From positions 1 through 40,456 of IMG/VR virus record IMGVR_UViG_2778261534_000007: a DNA stretch of 40,456 bases. The stretch is one strand, 5' to 3'. This DNA comes from a virus. Its lineage: Duplodnaviria > Heunggongvirae > Uroviricota > Caudoviricetes. How positions within the stretch are numbered: the stretch's first letter is position 1; each line of letters starts with the position of its first letter. The notes beneath the pieces were generated by a model, which saw only the letters and a list, made by a program, of their open reading frames with translations, was not told the DNA's origin and did not search any database. Below, piece by piece: positions 2,443 to 40,456 of the stretch. The position numbers were made by a program, and so were the translations under genes.

Positions 2443-3243
2443 TTAAGCGGCGTCGGTGAATTCAAATAAAAAACCGGCTTGCGCCGGCTCTCTCATCTTT
2501 CTGTCTACCCATGCTGATATCGATGGTGGGTGCACCTTTTCAATAGCTGCGCGAAGTACAGCTGTACGTGCCAGTTTGTCGGTAATCTCAGGAAATCGCT
2601 TCTCTGTCTTCGGTACGTTAACAGCAACATTAGTAGAATCCGCACTGGCGAACGGATACATACCAAGAACTCTCACGTCGAGCATTCGAAGACCATGAAT
2701 TTTCACTTTCAAATTACGATTGATATAAAGCTCAGTGAAAACTTCATCCATTCTCTGTTCCCACCATTTAGAGCGTATGTGCCTGTGTGGGCCGCAGCAT
2801 CCAATCGCCACCCATTCAAATTTGCCAGAAAGGCGTAAAAGACGTTCAATTGATTCGTCGGTATGCCAGACCGGAACCGCTTTTGATTTTAGCCAATCAG
2901 GAACCAACTCAATCTGCTCGTCGTTTTCTGCCTCTGTCCCTTCGATAACGTCAGGTATAAGAAACCATTCAATTCTGCTGAACCACTTCCCAACAAAGTC
3001 GTAGAATTTTGCTCGTCTCTTACTCCAGTCTACCGGAGTGCCTTTCTTTAATGCTTTCATCCAGTCGCTAAAAGCGCCGTTATCAAGGCGTATATCACAA
3101 GGGAACATGGCAATCTTTTTCATCTGCTCTGGTCTGGCAAATGAAACAAAAGCCCCACCATCACGGTAAAGGGCTTTAATCAGCATATCTGTAGGGGCAT
3201 GCTCATCCCCCCATATTGGGCTGCCGTGAAAGTGGATGGTCAT
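2443..3243 (-). CDS. Hypothetical early-left accessory protein, 266 aa
   Basis: Long ORF in the early-left operon; family not recognised by inspection. Confidence 0.6.
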   Translation of the reverse strand: MTIHFHGSPIWGDEHAPTDMLIKALYRDGGAFVSFARPEQMKKIAMFPCDIRLDNGAFSDWMKALKKGTPVDWSKRRAKFYDFVGKWFSRIEWFLIPDVIEGTEAENDEQIELVPDWLKSKAVPVWHTDESIERLLRLSGKFEWVAIGCCGPHRHIRSKWWEQRMDEVFTELYINRNLKVKIHGLRMLDVRVLGMYPFASADSTNVAVNVPKTEKRFPEITDKLARTAVLRAAIEKVHPPSISAWVDRKMREPAQAGFLFEFTDAA

Positions 3244-3570: not shown

Positions 3571-4096
3571 GGTTAACCTCCTGCGGCGGTTCTGGTAGCG
3601 GCATCCAGTGAGTTATTTCATCGGCAAAGATATCTGAGTTAAGTTCCGTCCAACTATTCCAATACCCAGATTCATCCCACCATTTAACCTCGACATGCTC
3701 TCCGTCGGTCACTAACACATCAGCATACCCTTTCGGCATTCGCTCACTACAGCTTATCCAACCATCCGGAGTTACCGGAGAGTTGCCATTTACATCGAAG
3801 TTTGGCTCTGCGTCCTGAACCAGGAGGATGTAACCATTCTTGGCTGTATCAAGTTCTAACGCCTCGGTGACGGTGCCGAAATAGCGATTACCTAAATCAG
3901 CATCACAAGTGCTTACATCAATGGAAACTTCCATGCCTTCGATTAATTCTGGCAAGTTGTAAGTTTGGCTTACAGGCTCTGCTTCCAGCGATGCCAGCGC
4001 AATCCGTGCCAGTTCCATTTGTTCGCCACGAGTAAGTCCGTTATCAAGCGGATTTTTAATGAATAATTTGATACGTTCTTTGGTTATAGCGCTCAT
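3563..4096 (-). CDS. Phage protein with C-terminal DUF551-like domain (177 aa)
   Basis: C-terminal W-rich segment (VKWWDESGYWNSWTEL...HWMPLPEPP) typical of DUF551 in lambdoid early regions; 4-nt overlap with the upstream gene. Confidence 0.6.
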   Translation of the reverse strand: MSAITKERIKLFIKNPLDNGLTRGEQMELARIALASLEAEPVSQTYNLPELIEGMEVSIDVSTCDADLGNRYFGTVTEALELDTAKNGYILLVQDAEPNFDVNGNSPVTPDGWISCSERMPKGYADVLVTDGEHVEVKWWDESGYWNSWTELNSDIFADEITHWMPLPEPPQEVNRG

Positions 4097-4097
4097 A

Positions 4098-4592
4098 TCA
4101 CTCTCCTTTGGTGCGAATGCCAGTGGTACTCATTCTCCTGATTTCCCAGAGCACACGAGGAATACCACCGTTTCCGACCGGATCGCGTTTACTCCGCAGG
4201 GCGACGCTTGATTCCGCCCAGCTTTTTCTTGGAGGAAGCTCTTTCACACGAACAAAACCAGCTGCGCGAAGAGATGCTCCTGATTCATCTGCCTGGGTGT
4301 ACGTAATACAACGTTGATAACCCATAGCTTTTGCTGCCCGCCAGACAGCACCATAAAGCGCGCTGTTAGCGTTGCGTTCTCCTGTGGTACATGTGCGATT
4401 TACTTCAAGCGTTAATCCATCGTCCAAATGTCGTGCAACAGGTCGACCAGCTGTCGCCACACCTATCAATTCTCCGGCATTATTTCTCAGACCAATGCTG
4501 AATTTATGCCCCACTGGTGGTTTATTGTGTCGGTGGTGCTGTGCGATAAATTCCTGCGCCGCTTTCAGCGTTATAGGTGAAATGACCATCAC
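4098..4592 (-). CDS. Hypothetical early-left accessory protein, 164 aa
   Basis: ORF translationally coupled to neighbours; family not recognised by inspection. Confidence 0.55.
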   Translation of the reverse strand: MMVISPITLKAAQEFIAQHHRHNKPPVGHKFSIGLRNNAGELIGVATAGRPVARHLDDGLTLEVNRTCTTGERNANSALYGAVWRAAKAMGYQRCITYTQADESGASLRAAGFVRVKELPPRKSWAESSVALRSKRDPVGNGGIPRVLWEIRRMSTTGIRTKGE

Positions 4593-5700: not shown

Positions 5701-6189
5701 TTATTTGATAAGAAGTGAAGGTTTCCCAACTTTGAGTTGAGCACCGGGGATATTTATTCCTGCTTTTAGTTGGTGTTTGATTGCCAGTTTGTCGGCTTTA
5801 ATTGTCGTTTCAAACTCAACGTATTCAGGAGGAAGGGCGCTTGAGTCGATGATTTCTACAGTTTCTGACGGTTTGCGGATTGTTACCTGGTGAATACCTG
5901 CTCTAATCTTTTTCTTGCCAACCATTTCAAGCGATGAGGCTATATATGCCATAATGCTATCAATCTTATTTTGAATTACTGCTGCTCGTTCATTCAGTGA
6001 CTTTGCCTCGTCCTTGAGGCGTTCAGCATAACCAGATTCATTTTTAATAATGGCAAGAAGTTGCTCTATTTTATCGGTAAATTCTCCTTCCATGCCTTCT
6101 ATTGTGTCAGCAATCATCTCTGGTTCTAAATCTGAATCCATCAATTTTGCGTATTCATTGGCAATTTCATATAGTTTGCTCACTGGCAA
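5701..6189 (-). CDS. Recombination-associated protein, siphovirus Gp157-like (162 aa)
   Basis: Immediately downstream of and overlapping recT; acidic helical N-terminus; Gp157-family assignment is by resemblance and synteny. Confidence 0.5.
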   Translation of the reverse strand: MPVSKLYEIANEYAKLMDSDLEPEMIADTIEGMEGEFTDKIEQLLAIIKNESGYAERLKDEAKSLNERAAVIQNKIDSIMAYIASSLEMVGKKKIRAGIHQVTIRKPSETVEIIDSSALPPEYVEFETTIKADKLAIKHQLKAGINIPGAQLKVGKPSLLIK

Positions 6190-7069
6190 CCTCCAGTTTC
6201 GCTTTGCATTCTATGTAAATGGCTTGTATGTTCTGCTGCAATTTCATTCCAGATGTCAGGCGATATGCTTCTGCAAAATATCTCTTCAAATCATCCATGT
6301 TTTCAGACTGAGCCATTTCATCACAAAGAAGTTGTGCTTTATCCGTTATTTCCTGCTGGCGTTTCCGTTCATCTTCGCGGATATCTTCCTCTGATTTGTG
6401 CGGCATAACTGGTTCCTGATGCATACCTTCATCTTCGTTAAGCAGGTGAATGGCATTATCCAGTCGCTGGGCTTTAGGCCAGTATTTGCTGGCGCGTTTA
6501 ACTATTGTTTTACGCGCCATCTCTTCCCAGAATGTCTTCCACGGTCCATTCTTTGCCTTGCTCGTTGCTTCCACAGCTTTAATTTCTGCCAGACTCATTT
6601 CTTCAGTGAGGTAGTCACCATCTGCTGTTTTAACCGTACAATAACCACCAACAATAGAGCCTCGCTCACCAAATGCGTTGTATTTGTGGGTTGGTGCTGA
6701 ATCAAGGCCGTTTGATTCATAGGTGTCGTTTGAGTACACCAGTTTGCATTGCCCCCACTTAATTGATCCTGTCGATTGCGCAAGATGAAGTAATCCCATG
6801 TAACTGATATCAAGGCAAACCATGCCGTCGCGAGGAACCAGATAAGCCAGTTTGCTGGCCGGGTTTAAGGTGATGCCGATCGCCGCAACATTGATGATGG
6901 CGTTCTGTGCGCTGGTTGGATTTGCCAGTGCCGTTTTAGCCAGGTAATCATTTTTCTGGAAATACTGAATTGCAAACTGGCTTTCCTTAGCCCATGTCAC
7001 CGTCTGTTCAGTCAATGCTCCGCAGAATAACTGCTCCTGCTGTTTAACGAATTCAACGATATTGCTCAT
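6167..7069 (-). CDS. recT: RecT-family single-strand annealing recombinase (300 aa)
   Basis: RecT-family similarity across the length (NVAAIGITLNPASKLAYLVPRDG...); located in the position of lambda bet. Confidence 0.8.
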   Translation of the reverse strand: MSNIVEFVKQQEQLFCGALTEQTVTWAKESQFAIQYFQKNDYLAKTALANPTSAQNAIINVAAIGITLNPASKLAYLVPRDGMVCLDISYMGLLHLAQSTGSIKWGQCKLVYSNDTYESNGLDSAPTHKYNAFGERGSIVGGYCTVKTADGDYLTEEMSLAEIKAVEATSKAKNGPWKTFWEEMARKTIVKRASKYWPKAQRLDNAIHLLNEDEGMHQEPVMPHKSEEDIREDERKRQQEITDKAQLLCDEMAQSENMDDLKRYFAEAYRLTSGMKLQQNIQAIYIECKAKLEVASEQTI

Positions 7070-31366: not shown

Positions 31367-32755
31367 ATGGCTACTTGGCAAGGATCAAATGGCGGATTGT
31401 TGGCTGGTATCGGCGGCGTCAACTCAAACGCTCCGAGCGTAAATGACATCGGCAATACGCTTCAGCTTATCAGGCAGAACAATGATATTGAGCGTTCAGG
31501 CGCTAACAATGTTGGGCTGACTGCTTTGCAAGGTCTTTCAGGTATTGCAGGGGTGTTTCAGCAGGAAAAGCAGGCTCAGCGGCAGAAAGAATTTCAGCAG
31601 GCATACGCTAATGCTTATGCGTCTGGTGATCGCGGTGCTTTGCGTCAGTTGGCTACTCAATATCCAGACCAGATTGAATCCGTTCGTAAAGGCATGGGAT
31701 TCATTGATGAAGAGCAGCGTAATTCTATCGGCACCTTAGCAGCTGGCGCACGCCTTGCGGCCTCGTCTCCAGAAGCAATGCAATCATGGCTGCAAAACAA
31801 CGCCAAGGAACTGGCGCGCGTAGGCGTTGACCCTAACAACGTTGCTCAGATGTATCAGCAGAATCCTTCAGGATTTGGTGAGTTTGTTGATCACCTCGGA
31901 ATGGCTGCTCTTGGTCCGATTGATTACTTCAATGTTCAGGACAAGATGGCTGGTCGTGAGATTGACAGAGGCAGACTGGCAGAGACAATCCGCAGCAATC
32001 AGGCCGGAGAGGCGCTAACAGCACGAGGTCAAAACATCACGATGCGCGGTCAGGATTTATCTGCTTCTACTGCGCGACGCGGGCAGGATTTGGCAATGCA
32101 GCGAGCGTCAACAAGAGGAACCGCTGGGAATGACGAGCGTACAGTTCAGTTATCAGATGGCAGAACTGTAACGGTAGGCGGGAAGCTTCACGGCGCTGGG
32201 GCTAATGCGTTCTACGAAGGCATCGACAACGAGGGGAATATGGTTCGCGTTCCTGCCAGTTCAATCGCAGCGCCTGCAACATCGTCTGCATCAGCACAAA
32301 ACTATGCCATGAAGAAGGATATCGACGCGATCGCAAATGCAGACGCTTCTGCTCTCGATTTCATGACAGGAATGACCGGCGGTGCAGGTAACCCGGCAAT
32401 TGGTGCTGATGTTCGCAGCCGATTAACAGGAAAAGAGCAGCGCCAGTTATATAACTCAGCACAACGTATTCAGGGAAGAATGCAGAATCAGGGCGTGGCG
32501 GCAGCAAGGGACATGGGTGCCAGTGGTATTAACACCGTTGCAGAAGCGAAGATGTATTTTCAGGGGATGCCGCAGGTTGACTATTCAAGCCCGGAGGCTA
32601 TGCAGCAGTCGATTCGTGAAATTCAGGAATACACCAACAATTACAACCAACAATATAACGTTAATGTTGGTAAATCTCAGCGGAAGCAATCTCAACCTGC
32701 ACAGGTATCACAGCCAGCAGCCAGCAGTAACTTTTCTTCACTATGGGGTGATTAA
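31367..32755 (+). CDS. Ejection protein, P22 gp20-position
   Basis: Synteny and size (462 aa). Confidence 0.55.
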
Positions 32756-34752
32756 TGGCTAAAGCATGGAAAGATGTTATCGCCTCTCCACAGTATCAGG
32801 CGTTAGCACCAGAACAAAAAGCGCAGGCTCAGGAGCAATACTTCAATGAAGTCGTGGCCCCGCAAGCCGGAGAAAATGCAGAGCAGGCTAAGCAAGCTTT
32901 CTATGCTGCCTATCCATTGCCATCTGTGCAGCCAGTGGAGACACAACAACCATTAGCACAGCAACAACCACAGCAAAGTGGATTTATGTCTGATCTTGGC
33001 GAAGCAGTAAGAGAGACTGGTCGCGGACTGGTGCAGGCTGGCGTGAACGTGGCAAACATACCTGCATCAGTTGCCGATGCTGTAACAAGTGCGGCGGCTT
33101 GGGCTGGCGGTAAACTCGGCATTGGTGATGGTACATATCAACCAGCGCCACGAGTAACAACGCAGGGATTAGAGCAGGACTTTGGCCTTCAGCAAGGCGC
33201 GCTGACTCCACAAACTACAGAGGGCAGGGTATTTGCTGAGGCATTGCCTTACCTCACTCCTTCTGGCGTTGAGAGAGCGGCGGTACAGGCACCAACACTT
33301 GCTGGTCGAATTGCTCAGGGGGCAACTCGCCTTCTCGCAGAAAACGCAGTTGGATCACTTGCTGCAAACAGTATGAAAGATGATGCGGAAGCACTTGCTA
33401 CCGATTTAGGCGTTGGTGTGCTGGCTGGCGGTGCTATTAACGCTGCCGGACGTGGGTTAGGTGCTGCTTATCGTGGCGTTCGTGGTGCTATTGCGCCAGA
33501 AGCGCAGCAGGCTATCAGATTTGCAGAGCGTGAAGGAGTTCCTCTGCACACCACAGACCTGTTACAGCCTACTTCCCGCGTCGGGAAAATGGCGCAGACG
33601 ACAGCGGAAAATATCCCCCTGGCTGGCACAAGCGGGATGAGAGCAACGCAACAGGAAGCGAGAAGCCAGTTGGTGCAGAGATTTGCTGATAAATTCGGTG
33701 AGTATGATCCAGCTGTTGTTATTGACAGCCTTAAAGCGAAAACATCAGGAATTCGTCGTGCTGCAGGGAACCGTCTTGAGCAGGTTCAGAATGCAATGGC
33801 GGGAGTCAATATCCAGCCTGCTCGAGCAATTCAGCAGATTGATACAGAAATATCTAACCTGCAGAAGCTTGGTAAGGTCGCCGATAACGAGACTATTTCA
33901 AAACTTCAGTCCTATCGTGATGAGCTTGTTCGCAATGCTGGTCCTGATGGTCCGGTAAATCTGGATTTGAAGCAATTAAGCGATCTGCGCAGCCAGTTCA
34001 GAATGGACGTGAAGGGTGAGCGACCAGTGTTACCAAACCGTTCCGATGCCGCCATTCAGCGCGTTTACAAGGCGATGACAGACGATATCAATGGTGCCAT
34101 TGGTCAGAATCTTGGCAACGATACTCTCCGTAAATATCAGCAGGCCAATGCCGTCTACGCTGACGAAGCGGCGAAACTAAAGAATACCAGGCTGAAGAAT
34201 GTTCTCATGAAAGGCGACCTGACGCCGGAAGTTGTCAACAACATGCTATTCAGCAAGAACAAATCTGAAATTAAGACGCTGTATAACTCAGTTGGTCGTG
34301 TTGGCAGGGCGCAAATGCGCAATGGCATCATTGGAAAGGCGATGGAGAAATCTGGCGGATCCCCTGACCAGTTCCTTCGACAGCTTAACATCCTGCAAAA
34401 CCAGACTGGCATCACATTTAAGGGGCAGGACGCTGCTTATCTGAAAGGATTGAAAAACTACCTGCAATCCACGCAGCAGGCTGCAAAAGCGGCAATAACA
34501 ACACCAACAGGGCAGCAAACCATCCCGTTCATTATCGGATATGGGACAGCAATGAACCCGGCGACAACTGGCGCAGCAGTAAGCTACGGACTTCTTACTC
34601 GCGCATATGAGAGCGAGCCATTCAGAAATGCAATGCTCCGAATGGCAAACACCCCACGCGGATCAACAGCCTTTGAGAAAGCAATGCAGCAGGCACAAAA
34701 GGCAATTAACGCTCTGACGCAGGGGGCTAAGTCTGATGCGTTGTCAGAATAG
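32755..34752 (+). CDS. Ejection protein, P22 gp16-position
   Basis: Synteny and size (665 aa); last gene of the rightward late operon before the convergent lipoprotein gene. Confidence 0.55.
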   Translation: MAKAWKDVIASPQYQALAPEQKAQAQEQYFNEVVAPQAGENAEQAKQAFYAAYPLPSVQPVETQQPLAQQQPQQSGFMSDLGEAVRETGRGLVQAGVNVANIPASVADAVTSAAAWAGGKLGIGDGTYQPAPRVTTQGLEQDFGLQQGALTPQTTEGRVFAEALPYLTPSGVERAAVQAPTLAGRIAQGATRLLAENAVGSLAANSMKDDAEALATDLGVGVLAGGAINAAGRGLGAAYRGVRGAIAPEAQQAIRFAEREGVPLHTTDLLQPTSRVGKMAQTTAENIPLAGTSGMRATQQEARSQLVQRFADKFGEYDPAVVIDSLKAKTSGIRRAAGNRLEQVQNAMAGVNIQPARAIQQIDTEISNLQKLGKVADNETISKLQSYRDELVRNAGPDGPVNLDLKQLSDLRSQFRMDVKGERPVLPNRSDAAIQRVYKAMTDDINGAIGQNLGNDTLRKYQQANAVYADEAAKLKNTRLKNVLMKGDLTPEVVNNMLFSKNKSEIKTLYNSVGRVGRAQMRNGIIGKAMEKSGGSPDQFLRQLNILQNQTGITFKGQDAAYLKGLKNYLQSTQQAAKAAITTPTGQQTIPFIIGYGTAMNPATTGAAVSYGLLTRAYESEPFRNAMLRMANTPRGSTAFEKAMQQAQKAINALTQGAKSDALSE

Positions 34753-34842
34753 CTTTTCAAACACCAGGAACGTGCAAAAACCAAATATGTAGAACGCGAG
34801 GTTTATCGTACAACTCTGCATAGGAGATACCTTTGCTGATTG

Positions 34843-35328
34843 TTATCTTATGTTACTGCTACTGTTGCATGTGACTGTATTTCCAAACCCTGAATTGCAG
34901 TTTGTGTAAGTGTCAACGCGTGTTGGATAGGGTTGAGTTATAACAGGCTGTCTCGCTTTTTGCTCGATCGCTTGCATTGTGTTTACAGCCTGATAATTCA
35001 ATAAAGCCTGCTGGAATGCTTGGCTTTGTGCTATTTGTTGGGCTTGTTCTTGGCTTTGTAATTGAACATAAAGATTCTGAAGCTCAAGTCTTGCCTGTGC
35101 GTCACTTATCTTGCCTTCATCGACACCTTGCCCGAGCATCTTTGCAGCAAGGACATACAGCTTAGGTGTTGGTGCTGATGCCATGCGTGAGTCGTTCTTC
35201 ACACTGGCATCAAGGCAATTAGCCATATCGCTAAGCTTTTGATAGCGTTGTTCGCAACTTGCTTGATAGTCACTTACTTTTGCGCATCCAACCAGCAGAA
35301 GCGGGATAATTAACAGTAATTTTTTCAT
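34843..35328 (-). CDS. Phage-encoded lipoprotein (161 aa) in the immI/sieA slot
   Basis: AAGGAGAG RBS; signal peptide with lipobox MKKLLLIIPLLLVGC; Gln-rich helical region; Cys-containing C-terminus; the listed ORF start (35364) is an extension. Confidence 0.7.
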   Translation of the reverse strand: MKKLLLIIPLLLVGCAKVSDYQASCEQRYQKLSDMANCLDASVKNDSRMASAPTPKLYVLAAKMLGQGVDEGKISDAQARLELQNLYVQLQSQEQAQQIAQSQAFQQALLNYQAVNTMQAIEQKARQPVITQPYPTRVDTYTNCNSGFGNTVTCNSSSNIR

Positions 35329-35398
35329 ATGGTTAACTCTCCTTAGTTTTTCACAGGATAGCATGAAGGCAATGCCATTTTAGCCGGAAACTAGATTT

Positions 35399-35698
35399 CT
35401 ATGTTTCCTTTTTATTATTGCTATACATGGTCTTAAGCGTTTCAAAAACCATTTTCTTAACCATATCAGATTGTTGTTCTGCCATACGCTCTGCATCGTC
35501 AATGTAAACGGATGCAGAGCTTTGTTTAGCCAACGATTCTTCAATCGCTGCAATTATCTCTGAGTTCAGCGATCTGTTATTCATCTTCGCACGCTGCTTA
35601 ATTTTCGCGTGGAGTTCATGCGGAAGTCTCAAGTGAAACTGCGCCTCATCGTATTTGCTGTACATCCTTGATGCCTCACCAGTTGGGTGGAATGGCAT
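35399..35698 (-). CDS. mnt: Mnt-like ribbon-helix-helix repressor
   Basis: RHH N-terminus (FHLRLPHELHAKIKQRAKMNNRSLNSEI); C-terminus DAERMAEQQSDMVKKMVFETLKTMY resembles P22 Mnt as recalled; start may be at 35665 (MYSKYD). Confidence 0.7.
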   Translation of the reverse strand: MPFHPTGEASRMYSKYDEAQFHLRLPHELHAKIKQRAKMNNRSLNSEIIAAIEESLAKQSSASVYIDDAERMAEQQSDMVKKMVFETLKTMYSNNKKET

Positions 35699-35786
35699 CG
35701 TAACCTACTGGATAAATACTCAATAGTACCATTTCGGTATGCAATCACATCATGGTTGCATCATATCATTCGTCTGGAGCAATGAA

Positions 35787-38024
35787 ATGTCAGATATCAC
35801 CGCAAATGTTGTGGTAAGCATGCCTTCGCAACTCTTCACTATGGCGCGTTCTTTTAAAGCGGTTGCCAATGGCAAAATTTATATCGGAAAAATTGACACT
35901 GACCCGGTAAATCCTGAAAACCAGATTCAGGTTTATGTAGAGAATGAAGACGGTTCTCACGTTCCTGTTTCGCAACCAATCATCATTAACGCTGCTGGAT
36001 ATCCGGTATATAACGGACAGATTGCCAAATTCGTTACCGTGCAAGGCCATTCGATGGCTGTTTATGATGCGTATGGTGCGCAGCAGTTCTATTTTCCGAA
36101 TGTTCTTAAATATGATCCTGATCAGCTTAAAGTATCTCTATCAGGGAAAGACGGTCTTAAATACATCGGGACATGCCCTGATATAGCAATGTTAAGGACA
36201 ATTGAGCCTGAGCGAGATCAGCAAAAGATTTTCGTCGACTTCCACACTACAGGCATGAAGCCTACAGTATCAGGTGATACTGGTGGTGGTCTGTTTGTGT
36301 CAGATTTCACAGATTCTACTTCTGCAGATGATAACGGCATGGTCATTGTCACTGCGGGTGGTAAACGCTGGAAACGTGATCTTCAAGGTAAGGGGTATGT
36401 AACACCACGTATGTTTGGTGCGTGGATGGATGCTCCATATATTGACTGGAATACTATTCAGGCCACAGGGTATCCTAGAGCGCCAAGCATGGGTGGCGTC
36501 GATTTAACAGGAGTAACAAATGATGGATTAGCACTTAATAAAGCTTATCTAACTAAGCTTCCTGTTTTCATAGACCAGCCCATATATATGGGTAACACTC
36601 AAATTGACATTAGCCAGTTTAGATGGGAAGGGATTAGTCTAAATCTATATGGGATTAATCCACAAAAAAGTATTGTTTATACATCAGGAAGTGGTGGTTT
36701 TGTTATGGGAAGTTGGGGGCACAATCTTAAAGTAAAGAATATGTGTTTTCGCAACGCTGACGATGAATATTCAGGTAGCCCATTGGTCATTTCTGGTCAA
36801 ACACAAACTTTTGGCGGTGGTAGTGAATATGATATTAAAAATAACATATTTCTACATTATAAATTTGCACTTCCCTTATCATGCTTTGTCAGTAATGTTA
36901 CAAACAACCAAGCATATGATTGTATCTATGGTTTCGGTTTGGCTGGCACATCTACTACATTCTCTTCCAACTGGGCAAGGCATTGTGACTACGGATATCT
37001 GTGGGGCGCGGCTATTGATAGAACAACATATGATCCGGTGAACAGTCCTTACCCATTGATGTATGTTAAGGCCACAAATATCGCGTCGGATGGATGTAAA
37101 TTACCACATAAGTTCTATCAATTTAGATCTTTAAGTATTGATGGTCTAGGTATTGAGGGTGTCACAGGAGATCATTGCTTAGATTTTACAGATATAGTTC
37201 AGCAGGATGCTACTTCGCTAATGGAGTTGTCAAATATCTCATGCAATCTTAAGGAAGACAATTCGGTAGGTGTGACGCACTTCATATCATTGCCAACTAA
37301 TGAACAGAATGGACCAACACAAGTTAGGATATTATCTGGATATGTTCGGGCATACAAAGGGATTACCATTCTTAAGAATACATCTGACGAGTCAAGCCAG
37401 TATCAATGCCGTGGGTTTGATATTTGTGATGGGTTCAAATTCATAAAGCAAACAAGCGGTAGTTCTATCGCTGATGACTACGTTAGAGGGAGTAAATATC
37501 ATTCAAGATTCTATGGTGAACATACAGGTATTGGTTATCAGACAGGCTCTAATGGCACTAAACTTTCAGCATTACATCAGGCATCAAATGCAGTATATCC
37601 ACAAGTTATTACAGAGAACGGTACAATACTCATGCCTTATGGGAGGGCTCTCGATATTCTTATAGCAACAGATGGAGAGGAATCGTATTATACTGGTGGT
37701 GTTTTTATTGCCGGTGAGATAAGTATAATTCCTATTAACCAAAATGGATTGGGAGGGGTTAACGAAAATGGAGGGGTTATTTTATTTAGCGTTTCAGCTA
37801 AAGATCAAGCAACGTTATTATCATCAAAAGTTTGGGTAAATAAAATTACAGGAGACAAGCTATTAAATAATGTAGTGGTTTCCAAGTACAACAATGGAAG
37901 CCAAACAATACTAAGGATAAACTTCGCAACAGCAACCATCTCTCAAGCCATATTGCATATTACACTAACCTCACAAGGTCGGATGCATTACTATGATAAG
38001 AGATGGAAAATTGTAACTCCGTGA
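35787..38024 (+). CDS. Tailspike protein: P22-type N-terminal head-binding domain plus divergent beta-helix receptor-binding domain
   Basis: Residues 1-~115 match the P22 gp9 N-domain as recalled ([11 protein letters not shown]...F...[35 protein letters not shown]...VLKYDPDQ); the remainder diverges and is AT-rich; GGAG RBS. Confidence 0.85.
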
Positions 38025-38055: not shown

Positions 38056-39054
38056 TTATATTAAATGTTTTGTTATTTTATTCTTTGATAGTAAATAACA
38101 AATTAAAGCTGAAATTGCGAAATATATTATGGTGAGTACAGGTATCATATACCATGCATTAACAGGACTGTAGCCAAACTTTATCTCTCTGACTAATATA
38201 AAATGTATGAAATAGATACCAAAAGATAGTCCTGAAATTGTCCTTATAAAGGAAAGCACATGATCAGATACACGATCCTTAACTGAAATGCAAAACATGA
38301 ACGTGAAGATAGCACTTGCAAAAACAAATGGAGCAGTATTTTTAAAGAAAAGCTGTTCCGGCCTACCAACCTTGCTGGACCACCATATTGTAGCTAAAAC
38401 AGTAGCCACGCTAAAGAAGACAACAAGCAGGAAATAAATTATCCAACTAATAGTTGAAATTCTGTCTCTATATCTTCTTAGTATAGCGCCAACAAGAATG
38501 TATATGCCATTCTCTGAAATAAAATCCAACTTAAGCCATGTAAGGCTAAACATTGTTCTGTGAATGTACGGAACGAGTGAGTGAACGTAAAACAACATCG
38601 CTATTATCATCAGTATATAATACGATGGCAAATTCTTAAGTGGATTACTTATTATTGGTAAAAACATATACATGCAAATATATGTATACATAAACCATAA
38701 ATGGACCTCTGAATGTTGAAATAATGACGATATTTTAAGTCCGTTATAGTGATTATTATATAAAAAATAAAACAGCCACCAAAACATAAAAGGAATAAAG
38801 AGTTTTCTAACCCCTTTTGCTAAATGATTTGAAGCCTCTATCTCCTTTTTATAATAAAGGTATCCTGTTATTATAAAGAATAACCCAATACATTGTCGTG
38901 TAAATGAACTATACGTTGTTATAGTATTCCATGAGTCGCTGAATGCAAGGAAGTAAGCTCCTGACGCATGTAACATAACCACAAGAAAGATAGCTAAACT
39001 TCTTGCTATATGCACTTCATTTAACTCTATTCTATTTTGTCGAATATCAGACAT
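38056..39054 (-). CDS. Integral-membrane acyltransferase (acyltransferase-3 family; O-antigen acetylase Oac-like), 332 aa
   Basis: About 10 predicted TM helices; N-terminal motif RSLAIFLVVMLHA typical of the acyltransferase-3 family; very AT-rich; located between tailspike and integrase, where seroconversion genes sit in P22-like phages. Confidence 0.75.
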   Translation of the reverse strand: MSDIRQNRIELNEVHIARSLAIFLVVMLHASGAYFLAFSDSWNTITTYSSFTRQCIGLFFIITGYLYYKKEIEASNHLAKGVRKLFIPFMFWWLFYFLYNNHYNGLKISSLFQHSEVHLWFMYTYICMYMFLPIISNPLKNLPSYYILMIIAMLFYVHSLVPYIHRTMFSLTWLKLDFISENGIYILVGAILRRYRDRISTISWIIYFLLVVFFSVATVLATIWWSSKVGRPEQLFFKNTAPFVFASAIFTFMFCISVKDRVSDHVLSFIRTISGLSFGIYFIHFILVREIKFGYSPVNAWYMIPVLTIIYFAISALICYLLSKNKITKHLI

Positions 39055-39298: not shown

Positions 39299-40456
39299 TC
39301 ACTCCACCTTTTCATCAATCCAGTCCGCCCACCACTGCATCATTTCTCTGCGCTTATCGAGATACTGAGCATGGTTGTAAATCCCGCGCACAGAACCGCC
39401 GTTGGCATGTGCCAGTTGCACTTCAATAGCATCAGCAGGCCATTCGTGCTCGTTCATAATCGTGCTGAATTCATGCCTGAATCCGTGACCGCTTTCCAGA
39501 CCCTCATAGCCGATTTGTTTGATCACAAGCAGTACCGCGTTCTCGCAGATTGGCTTCTTCTTATCGTTGCGACCGGCAAAAACAAACTCTGATACTGGTT
39601 TGGTGATTGAGCTTAGCGTAGTGAGAAGTTCAACCACCTGGTCTGACATAGGAACCACATGAATTTTGCGTCCCTTCATCACACTGGCGTCGATGGTGAT
39701 AATCCTGTTTTCAAAATCGACGTTCTTCCATAGCATAGAACGAAGCTCTTTTGTTCTGAGGGCTGTGTAGCGTAAAACTTTGGTCGCAATGAGCGATACG
39801 ATGCTTCCTGAAAATGTTGCCAGTGCTTTGTTAAATGCCGGGATCTGGTCTGCAGGAAGAAACGGGAAGTTTTTCTTGCGGTATCCCTTCATGGCGTCAG
39901 CAAGGTCAGGTGCCGGGTTATATTTAGCCCTACCAGTGACAATAGCGTAACGGAAAACCTCGCCGCATCTTCTGCGTGCTTTGTTGGCTCGCTCCATTGC
40001 CCCGCGATCTTCAAATCTGCGGATTACTTCCAGCAGTTGCATCGGCTCAATATCCTGAATTTCAAGGCCGCCGATGATAGGTAAAATGTCGTCATCAAAC
40101 ATTTTTGCAAGTTCAGTCGCATAGGCGGCTGACCAGACTTGCTTCTTGTGCTCGTACCATTCCTTGTAAATCGCACTAAAGGAATTGTTGTTAGACGAAG
40201 CCTTTTTCGCCTTTACCGGATCGATGCCAACCGAGATGTCTTTCCTCGCAGTCCATGCCTTATCCCTTGCCTCCTGCAAAGTCATAAGCGGATATTTTCC
40301 GACGGTCAGGATTTTCTCCTTACCGTCAATCTTGTAGCGAAGCTGCCATACCTTTTTCCCTGATACAGGAACATAAAGGTACAGGCCATTACCATCGAGA
40401 AGGCGGTATGGTTTTTCTTTCGGCTTTGCTGCCTCAATCTGCTTAACGGTGAGCAT
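39299..40456 (-). CDS. intS: Tyrosine site-specific integrase (P4/IntS family), 385 aa
   Basis: SAM-like and catalytic domains (R...HGFRHEFSTIM...Y region); start codon is the last base of the window, so the promoter and attL/argW lie outside. Confidence 0.9.
   Translation of the reverse strand: MLTVKQIEAAKPKEKPYRLLDGNGLYLYVPVSGKKVWQLRYKIDGKEKILTVGKYPLMTLQEARDKAWTARKDISVGIDPVKAKKASSNNNSFSAIYKEWYEHKKQVWSAAYATELAKMFDDDILPIIGGLEIQDIEPMQLLEVIRRFEDRGAMERANKARRRCGEVFRYAIVTGRAKYNPAPDLADAMKGYRKKNFPFLPADQIPAFNKALATFSGSIVSLIATKVLRYTALRTKELRSMLWKNVDFENRIITIDASVMKGRKIHVVPMSDQVVELLTTLSSITKPVSEFVFAGRNDKKKPICENAVLLVIKQIGYEGLESGHGFRHEFSTIMNEHEWPADAIEVQLAHANGGSVRGIYNHAQYLDKRREMMQWWADWIDEKVE

Follow-up and report, generated by a model that had tools for sequence, protein, structure and literature searches.

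The DNA analysed here, hereafter the window, comprises 40,456 nucleotides and derives from a mosaic, P22-like (Lederbergvirus) prophage or phage of E. coli. In the region studied, its genes follow each other in the order gene 16 type (+), lipoprotein (-), mnt (-), tailspike (+), O-antigen acyltransferase and integrase, and the ATG of mnt is separated by 121 bp from that of the tailspike gene at 35787 (Table 1). Genes identical or nearly identical to the 665-aa ORF on the left are annotated in E. coli genomes and phages as 'P22-gp16 family phage DNA ejection protein' or 'DNA transfer protein'. The first-pass annotation had placed a lipoprotein and an Mnt-like repressor at the position where P22 carries sieA-mnt-arc-ant, and both the gene identities and this position hold. 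The two genes thereby constitute what is called an 'ant moron', a set of variable, non-morphogenetic genes between homologs of gene 16 and gene 9, and among the relatives of the window at least five different kinds of content are found in this slot. An inverted repeat between mnt and the lipoprotein gene, GGAAAC-N11-GTTTCC, was considered as a terminator and rejected, as it lacks a T-run; co-transcription of the two genes is therefore possible.

Table 1. Coordinates of the genes and sequence features in and around the slot (numbering of the window)
Feature	Position	Strand	Details
Gene 16-type DNA-ejection protein gene	32755..34752	+	665-aa ORF; left border of the moron slot
Lipoprotein gene	34843..35328	-	161 aa, 147-aa mature protein; predicted outer-membrane lipoprotein
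Candidate extended -10 promoter of the lipoprotein gene	35355..35363	-	TGcTATCCT; inferred, read from the sequence
mnt-type ribbon-helix-helix repressor gene	35399..35665	-	88 aa; start MYSK at 35665
Inverted repeat GATGCC-N18-GGCATC	35670..35699		Between mnt start and promoter region
Likely Pmnt	35697..35723	-	-35 TTGAGT (35723..35718), 15-nt spacer, -10 TACGAT (35702..35697); inferred
Predicted Mnt operator GTACCATTTCGGTAT	35726..35740		Half-sites TACC / GGTA; centre 35733
Inverted repeat ATGCAA-N11-TTGCAT	35739..35761		DNA form ATGCAATCA-CATCA-TGGTTGCAT; perfect 6-bp arms
Promoter-like site	35765..35793	-	CTGACA-17-AATGAT, leftward from first tailspike codons; 9/12
Tailspike gene	35787..38024	+	GGAG 35776..35779; Pfam Head_binding 5.6e-67, residues 1-113; right slot border

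This arrangement, one of the forms that the hypervariable ant moron slot takes in P22-like phages, is already described and common. The stretch 34700-35850 is present at a coverage of at least 80% in 105 of 5426 complete E. coli genomes and partially in 931. IMG/VR loci with a near-identical Mnt (n=80) divide into about 45 that carry mnt together with the lipoprotein gene and about 35 in which mnt stands alone between gene 16 and the tailspike gene, a form also seen in phages Sf101 and IME10. The prophage of strain B7A has the same lipoprotein-mnt-tailspike order, with 97.3% identity over the region, and is included in Fig. 3 of Villafane 2008 (PMC2629481). In that study, sixteen genomes were sorted into ten ant moron types, and the slot of ST64T and ST104 was found to hold only mnt plus one unknown gene (PMC2629481).

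The lipoprotein gene starts at 35328, where the ATG is preceded by AAGGAG, in agreement with the 486-nt PGAP annotation in strain B7A; the 173-aa version that corresponds to the mechanical ORF (34843..35364, - strand) was rejected because of this ribosome site. Its product begins with a classic lipoprotein signal peptide, MKKLLLIIPLLLVG-C, in which MKK is followed by LLLIIPLL and the lipobox LVGC, with Cys15 and Ala at +2. The lipobox fits the pattern [LVI][ASTVI][GAS]C, and its Cys is invariant in 29 homologs. According to the +2 rule, a lipoprotein with Ala instead of Asp at this position is expected to be sorted by the Lol pathway to the outer membrane. Residues 78-130 consist of Gln to 30% (16/53) and are predicted to be helical, in agreement with the earlier description of a 161-aa lipoprotein with a Gln-rich helical region; the protein is predicted to form a 4-helix bundle. 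It matches phrog_6067, a family of unknown function, over its full length (1.7e-109). The family has five invariant Cys residues and is spread over the Enterobacterales, also in non-pathogens and insect or plant associates such as Xenorhabdus and Pectobacterium. Sequence searches yielded no relative in Pfam, NCBIfam, PADLOC or PDB, a match to GspK being spurious (18.9 bits against a cut-off of 130 bits), and no homology was detectable to the exclusion proteins Cor, Llp and SieA or to any defence-system model; the likeness to the Cor family phrog_1119 is limited to the signal peptide (residues 1-31, E 0.006).

With pairwise dN/dS ratios of 0.05-0.08, the lipoprotein gene is under purifying selection. 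It always lies between gene 16 and the tailspike gene and is convergent with gene 16, in Serratia, Yersinia and Morganella as well. Since it is found in the absence of mnt in Yersinia and Morganella, and beside a Bro-N gene in Serratia, the two leftward modules are independent of each other. Other, unrelated lipoprotein genes fill the same slot in Gally, a prophage of E. coli LF82, and in Buttiauxella. A candidate extended -10 promoter precedes the lipoprotein gene; the form TGnTATCCT is retained in Salmonella phage VSe13, and the distant homologs in Serratia and Morganella have -10-like boxes of their own at the same distance from the gene. The consensus promoter scan did not report the candidate at 35355..35363. 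The lipoprotein of Gally is 96.9% identical to that of the window, and its gene is transcribed in LB at 4.5 times the prophage background according to RNA-seq data (PMC9928086 supplement). Genes of an ant moron are expected to be expressed independently of the late operon; the transcription of the Gally orthologs while gene 16 is silent (PMC9928086 supplement) and the promoter-like boxes of the window would indirectly agree with this. The protein would thus appear to be an accessory envelope protein that is expressed from the prophage.

Small phage lipoproteins that act at the outer membrane are Cor of phi80, N15 and HK022, Llp of T5 and Bor of lambda, which are expressed from the prophage or in the early phase of infection. 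The lipoprotein of the window differs from them in size and fold, and Cor, Llp and Bor come from siphophages that use protein receptors. A function in exclusion is nevertheless plausible, as the sieA-like position suggests: like the lipoprotein gene, P22 sieA is the first gene after gene 16 and lies on the opposite strand, and it has an annotated promoter of its own, just as the Gally ortholog of the lipoprotein gene is transcribed from the prophage. The two products share no sequence similarity. Moreover, SieA mediates exclusion as an integral protein of the inner membrane (Leavitt et al. 2024, PMC10883804), whereas the lipoprotein, as a bundle of four helices, is predicted to reside at the outer membrane. 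It is conceivable, if on the whole doubtful, that phrog_6067 is the first of a new class of exclusion factors that are located in the outer membrane and are specific to P22-like podophages. If so, a lipoprotein encoded in the sieA slot would act from the periplasm and disturb either the conduit of ejection proteins or the secondary receptor.

Alternatively, the lipoprotein could serve the fitness or virulence of the host, in a lysogenic conversion similar to that by Bor, instead of excluding phages. The Gally ortholog is induced about 16-fold in macrophages, whereas gene 16 stays at background (PMC9928086 supplement); this increase is reached within 1 h and is also seen in culture medium. Such behaviour would suit a host factor, as would the lack of resemblance to any known exclusion or defence protein and the other lipoprotein genes that Gally and Buttiauxella carry in the slot. 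A host factor would not be expected, however, to be confined to one slot beside P22-like ejection-protein genes, exactly where P22 has sieA, nor to occur in non-pathogens and in associates of insects and plants, and we consider this role possible, but rather unlikely. That a selected lipoprotein is restricted to this slot and at the same time has a macrophage-induced ortholog in Gally constitutes a puzzle.

The second leftward gene encodes a protein that can be aligned to P22 Mnt throughout. Its identification as an Mnt-like repressor is confirmed by the presence of both the ribbon-helix-helix domain (Pfam PF03869 Arc, 1.1e-14, residues 18-60 of the 99-aa ORF) and the tetramerisation helix (Pfam PF11423 Repressor_Mnt, 3.9e-12, residues 68-92 of the same ORF). 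A 99-aa version with its start at 35698 was rejected because a relative in Escherichia sp. has a stop directly before MYSK; furthermore, the upstream ATG is out of frame in Gally, and PGAP assigns 267 nt to the gene in B7A. As tblastn queries against the window, the P22 proteins Arc, Ant, SieA and orf59a were used together with a Serratia Bro-N protein and the small 'antirepressor' of VSe13. None of them had a homolog anywhere in it (best E 0.09), in line with the earlier statement that Mnt lacks an arc or ant partner. There is thus no ant or Bro-N homolog for Mnt to control in the window, where the tailspike gene directly follows the predicted operator. Rfam gave no match at all in 34600-36000, including none to the sar RNA, which the same search finds in P22 (2.5e-21). 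The mnt gene is nonetheless under purifying selection (pairwise dN/dS 0.11-0.27), and the low ratios of both slot genes argue against simple decay.

Judged from its register and its conservation, the Mnt operator is likely GTACCATTTCGGTAT (35726-35740) and not the inverted repeat ATGCAA-N11-TTGCAT that had been pointed out upstream of the tailspike gene. In P22, the annotated Mnt operator GGTCCACGGTGGACC (GGTCCAC-G-GTGGACC) is located 2 nt to the right of TCTCAA, which is the other-strand reading of the Pmnt -35 box TTGAGA. The window has ACTCAA-TA-GTACCAT-T-TCGGTAT in the exact P22 register, again with 2 nt between the CTCAA box and the palindrome. The motif (A/C)(G/A)TACC(A/G)TTTNGGTA(T/C) is retained wherever the recognition strand of Mnt reads AQFHLRL, namely in E. 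coli and Shigella phages (Sf101), Escherichia sp., VSe13, Buttiauxella, Serratia, Citrobacter and about 78 further viral loci. Six genera with this strand possess the motif, and its right flank differs completely between the AQFHLRL lineages. Symmetry of the half-sites is perfect over only 4 bp in the window, the Buttiauxella operator has perfect arms (GTACC/GGTAC), and a few relatives show single changes in the right half-site, e.g., from GGTA to TGTA. Conservation of the motif could partly reflect its linkage to mnt.

Further indication of operator function comes from Mnt proteins of other N-terminal types, with which different palindromes are found at the same spot. The strand PHFNFRM (P22, epsilon34, Pluralibacter, Pectobacterium) pairs with GGTCCAC-G-GTGGACC, PQFNLRL (Gally, ST64T) with AGACCAC-N-GTGGTCT, and PQFNFRM (Phlomobacter) with ATATCAC-G-GTGATAT. 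The palindrome thus covaries with the N-terminal type of Mnt, and these pairings provide four naturally occurring specificities of a classic model repressor. In the window, the operator consensus matches once against 0.01 matches expected, so that there is no second target in cis; likewise, no further copies of the operator or of the palindrome, which would be a sign of a regulon, were found beyond chance in the window.

The likely Pmnt is homologous by position to the annotated Pmnt of P22 (TTGAGA-17-TATCAT), and its -10 box and the position of its -35 box are retained in all lineages. With its 15-nt spacer this promoter would be weak, and the consensus promoter scan did not report it. The sole consensus match in the intergenic region is the leftward CTGACA-17-AATGAT, which is absent where the tailspike leader is of the P22 type; if this promoter is used, the operator would be located downstream of the transcription start. 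A rightward promoter of the ant type before the tailspike gene was found neither by the scan nor at the position of the P22 ant promoter. The inverted repeat GATGCC-N18-GGCATC upstream of mnt is shared by Gally, ST64T and relatives in Buttiauxella and Serratia but is missing from P22, and its fold energies are unremarkable (z -1.2 to -1.6). A hairpin at this site that hides the mnt ribosome site was considered and rejected: the -10 box of Pmnt overlaps the 5' arm of the repeat, which would consequently not be part of the mnt transcript.

A persisting mnt without arc and ant could be a functionless, decaying leftover of a deleted immI. The loss of arc, ant, sar and the ant promoter would agree with this, as would an in-frame stop in the Citrobacter copy of mnt and an IS2 insertion beside the operator at one locus. 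The phage L genome paper, in which the orphan mnt genes of L and ST64T are already discussed, also leaves room for it by attributing to the gene 'another function or a remnant' (PMC8022706). In Gally, deletion of mnt caused no survival phenotype in the single assay that was tried, in macrophages (PMC9928086). However, the reading frame is intact and encodes both domains in hundreds of genomes, its dN/dS ratios are those given above, and the operator motif and the -10 box are retained across genera. Moreover, Gally mnt is strongly regulated, its RNA being raised 40-fold in macrophages (PMC9928086), and decay of the gene therefore appears improbable. Tailspike RNA increases about 8-16-fold under the same conditions, high expression of mnt coinciding with raised tailspike RNA (PMC9928086). 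This parallel increase and the null result of the deletion argue against Mnt as a tight gate of tailspike transcription.

Mnt might also be kept for a defence in trans, by silencing the ant promoter of incoming phages that share its operator (RTACCRTTTNGGTAY) and thereby preventing induction of the lysogen. The prophage Mnt of P22 does repress ant on superinfecting genomes, and purifying selection on a repressor without a partner in cis would fit such a task. Yet among about 170 related loci with an AQFHLRL Mnt, a sample of close relatives, not one has arc or ant next to, or linked to, this type of operator, and in nearly all of them the tailspike gene starts right after it. The antirepressor-like genes of VSe13, Serratia and Citrobacter are no substitute, as they lie beyond mnt and are transcribed toward it and away from the operator. 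We regard this explanation as decidedly improbable. Hundreds of E. coli and Salmonella prophages thus keep a selected Mnt with nothing obvious to repress, which is a puzzle in itself.

The inverted repeat ATGCAA-N11-TTGCAT is real, and can be extended to arms of 9 nt with one T/G position and a 5-nt centre, but relatives whose Mnt has the same recognition strand either do not possess it or have a changed palindrome. Its location between mnt and the tailspike gene, its nearly perfect symmetry over 23 bp and its overlap with a -10-like TATCAT region and the leftward promoter-like site might suggest that Mnt represses the tailspike gene through it. In the intergenic region, however, a perfect inverted repeat of at least 6 bp arises in 34-46% and an 8-of-9 repeat in 13-20% of dinucleotide shuffles, so that the repeat is within the range of chance. 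It is missing in the same-strand relatives VSe13, Buttiauxella, Serratia and Citrobacter and in about 70 viral loci, and two loci (L091 and L163) have ATTCAAT-N9-ATTGAAT instead, in which both arms are changed while Mnt is not, as would be unexpected of an operator. Furthermore, it varies more than any other part of the intergenic region, does not correspond to the position of the P22 operator, and tolerates C-to-T changes in a single arm, which break the symmetry of the DNA and keep G.U pairing. A role of this repeat as the Mnt operator is thus highly improbable.

As + strand RNA, the repeat reads AUGCAAUCA-CAUCA-UGGUUGCAU and would form a 9-bp stem with one G.U pair that ends 14 nt before the GGAG of the tailspike gene. 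Its variants mostly keep this pairing, with U.G replaced by C-G or U-A and C-G by U.G, and one lineage shows a double compensatory change in the stem. By itself, the hairpin of the window type is weakly supported: its fold z-score is -0.8, and among close relatives the observed values are reached by 20/500 and 37/500 shuffles. Nearly every other lineage of P22-like tailspike leaders, however, has a hairpin that ends 15 nt before GGAG, including P22, ST64T, Gally, Yersinia, Serratia and others, and also loci without mnt. It usually has the form CCGYAGC-loop-GCUGYGG, with AGC/GCU, AUG/CAU, AAG/CUU, AGA/UCU or AUC/GAU as inner pairs. From an alignment of 18 sequences, RNAalifold predicts the leader helix unaided. 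Its positions are paired to 96.3% as compared with 91.9% in shuffles, a value that exceeds all 500 of them; all 500 are also surpassed in the number of cells changed on both sides and in the covariation score, in a test in which related sequences can beat shuffles without any structure. G.U pairs occur in the helix only when it is read on the + strand, and the hairpin that precedes the P22 tailspike gene has no match in Rfam.

We therefore read the repeat as the version, in this lineage, of a conserved and unannotated stem-loop in the leader of the tailspike mRNA. That this hairpin is a functional RNA element is a tentative proposition, to which we would give rather less than even odds. It could possibly stabilise the 5' end that arises when the long late transcript is processed; alternatively, the site may act at the DNA level as a 'boundary sequence' of the kind annotated in CUS-3. 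The purpose of a covarying stem-loop before the tailspike ribosome site is a further puzzle of this locus.

Taken together, we interpret the locus, with a probability of roughly 0.6, as the B7A form of the ant moron slot, in which two leftward modules are combined, mnt is associated with the operator GTACCATTTCGGTAT, and the inverted repeat is the leader hairpin. Two independent modules would accordingly sit antisense inside the late operon. The first is the lipoprotein gene in the position of P22 sieA, which probably has its own promoter and would be expressed from the prophage; its product would be exported, lipidated and placed on the inner face of the outer membrane, and most likely acts on the envelope, either by blocking the entry of related phages or by helping the host. 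The second would be a working remnant of immI that consists of mnt, a weak promoter of its own and the single operator at 35726-35740, after arc, ant, sar and the strong ant promoter had been lost. As a tetramer, Mnt would most probably bind at this one position, which lies 47-61 bp before the tailspike start and immediately upstream of the mnt -35 box. There it would regulate its own synthesis and occupy the junction where transcription enters the tailspike gene. The orphan Mnt, its single operator and the leader hairpin may have been re-used for control of the tailspike gene instead of ant.

Compared with immI of P22, the slot of the window shares a two-domain Mnt and a promoter and operator in homologous positions (CTCAA-TA-palindrome). 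It differs in that arc, ant, sar and the ant promoter, all present in P22, are absent and the tailspike gene follows directly, and in that AQFHLRL replaces PHFNFRM as the recognition strand and GTACC-N5-GGTAT replaces GGTCCAC-G-GTGGACC as the operator. Closer counterparts are the orphan mnt genes of phages L and ST64T and of Gally. These likewise lack arc and ant, have the tailspike gene directly downstream, and share with the window a palindrome at the same spot and the leader repeat GATGCC...GGCATC, but their recognition strand is PQFNLRL and their operator AGACCAC-N-GTGGTCT; in L and ST64T a small orf replaces the lipoprotein gene, and the E. coli prophage Gally has an extra lipoprotein gene between the lipoprotein gene and mnt. 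Another potential parallel is the antisense RNA STnc6030 of BTP1, a non-coding transcript that confers immunity alone (Owen 2020, PMC7067206). The window has a promoter-like site that is directed leftward from the first tailspike codons, whereas its leftward strand encodes two conserved proteins.

The B7A type of ant moron described by Villafane 2008, finally, occupies the same slot, is antisense to the late operon and has the same variability of content, and there is no material difference between it and the locus studied here. In genome annotation, the locus should be named as the ant moron slot in a prophage of the P22-like type, encoding an Mnt of 88 aa and a lipoprotein of 161 aa. In the earlier study, genes other than those of immI were given no function and variant Mnt operators were not defined (PMC2629481). 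What the present analysis adds to this known arrangement is a defined candidate operator together with its natural variants of specificity, a new reading of the inverted repeat as a conserved hairpin in the tailspike leader, and evidence of selection on both orphan genes.

Nearly all of the P22-like lineages examined carry a stem-loop that ends 14–15 nt before the GGAG of the tailspike gene, and its counterpart in the window is the inverted repeat to which the first-pass annotation had drawn attention upstream of the tailspike. Across these lineages the inner pairs of the stem show compensatory changes, and G.U pairs occur on the plus strand only. Rfam contains no entry for this tailspike-leader stem-loop of P22-like phages; in CUS-3, an annotated "boundary sequence" overlaps it.

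The leader of mnt holds a second inverted repeat, GATGCC-N18-GGCATC. Gally, ST64T, Buttiauxella and Serratia all conserve this repeat, with differences in its interior, but P22 lacks it. The 3' arm of the repeat shares bases with GAGG, the likely Shine-Dalgarno sequence of mnt.

Features at and around the junction of mnt and tailspike gene (L-numbers, related loci compared with the window)
Feature	Locus	Position	Strand	Remark
GATGCC-N18-GGCATC inverted repeat	window	35670-35699		between mnt start codon and Pmnt-like -10 box
Tailspike-leader stem-loop	L004 (P22)	6150-6205		also L219, L088, L087 and others; window counterpart 35739-35761
Leftward promoter-like site	window	35765-35793	-	-35 box within first tailspike codons
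Homing-endonuclease insertion	L027, L035, L043, L058 (IMG/VR), E. coli M160133 (H26)	window ~35801		insertion point
IS2 end (TGGATTTGCCCCTATATTTCC...)	L045	window ~35741		directly behind GGTATG
Acyl_transf_3 O-antigen acyltransferase gene	window	38056-39054	-	beyond tailspike
Integrase gene	window	39299-40456	-	start codon exactly at final base of window
Small unrelated lipoprotein genes, same moron slot	L001 (Gally); L092 (Buttiauxella)	3764-4183; 2801-3184
Variant mnt loci	L095 (Citrobacter sp.); L094 (Serratia)	2501-2734; 1072-2745

The mnt region itself varies among relatives. Codon 5 of mnt in Citrobacter sp. is an in-frame stop, and both this locus and that of Serratia encode, on the far side of mnt, one or two Bro-N/antirepressor-like proteins together with a second ribbon-helix-helix protein. 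In Serratia, the operator is followed on its right by the gene of a different tail protein and not of a Head_binding tailspike. CUS-3 (L221, 611-868 and upstream) possesses two mnt-like genes in tandem, the first of which is preceded by a direct repeat, ATGCGTACC-N13-ATGCGTACC, that replaces the palindrome.

Insertions were also observed at or near the mnt-tailspike junction. An HNH (plus AP2-like) homing-endonuclease gene lies directly behind the first five tailspike codons (ATGTCAGATATCACC) in several loci, where the tailspike gene begins anew about 600 bp further on with a leader hairpin of its own. The IS2 end inserted in L045 directly adjoins the predicted Mnt operator and puts about 1.3 kb between mnt and the tailspike gene.

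Lipoprotein genes seem to accumulate in the moron slot of P22-like phages, the stretch between the gene 16-type ejection gene and the tailspike gene; the lipoboxes of the small, unrelated Gally and Buttiauxella proteins read LSGC and LAGC.

The leftward promoter-like site is reminiscent of the start of STnc6030, the immunity-conferring antisense RNA of phage BTP1 (PMC7067206). At the right end of the window, the order of tailspike, acyltransferase and integrase genes is common to Sf6 and Sf101.
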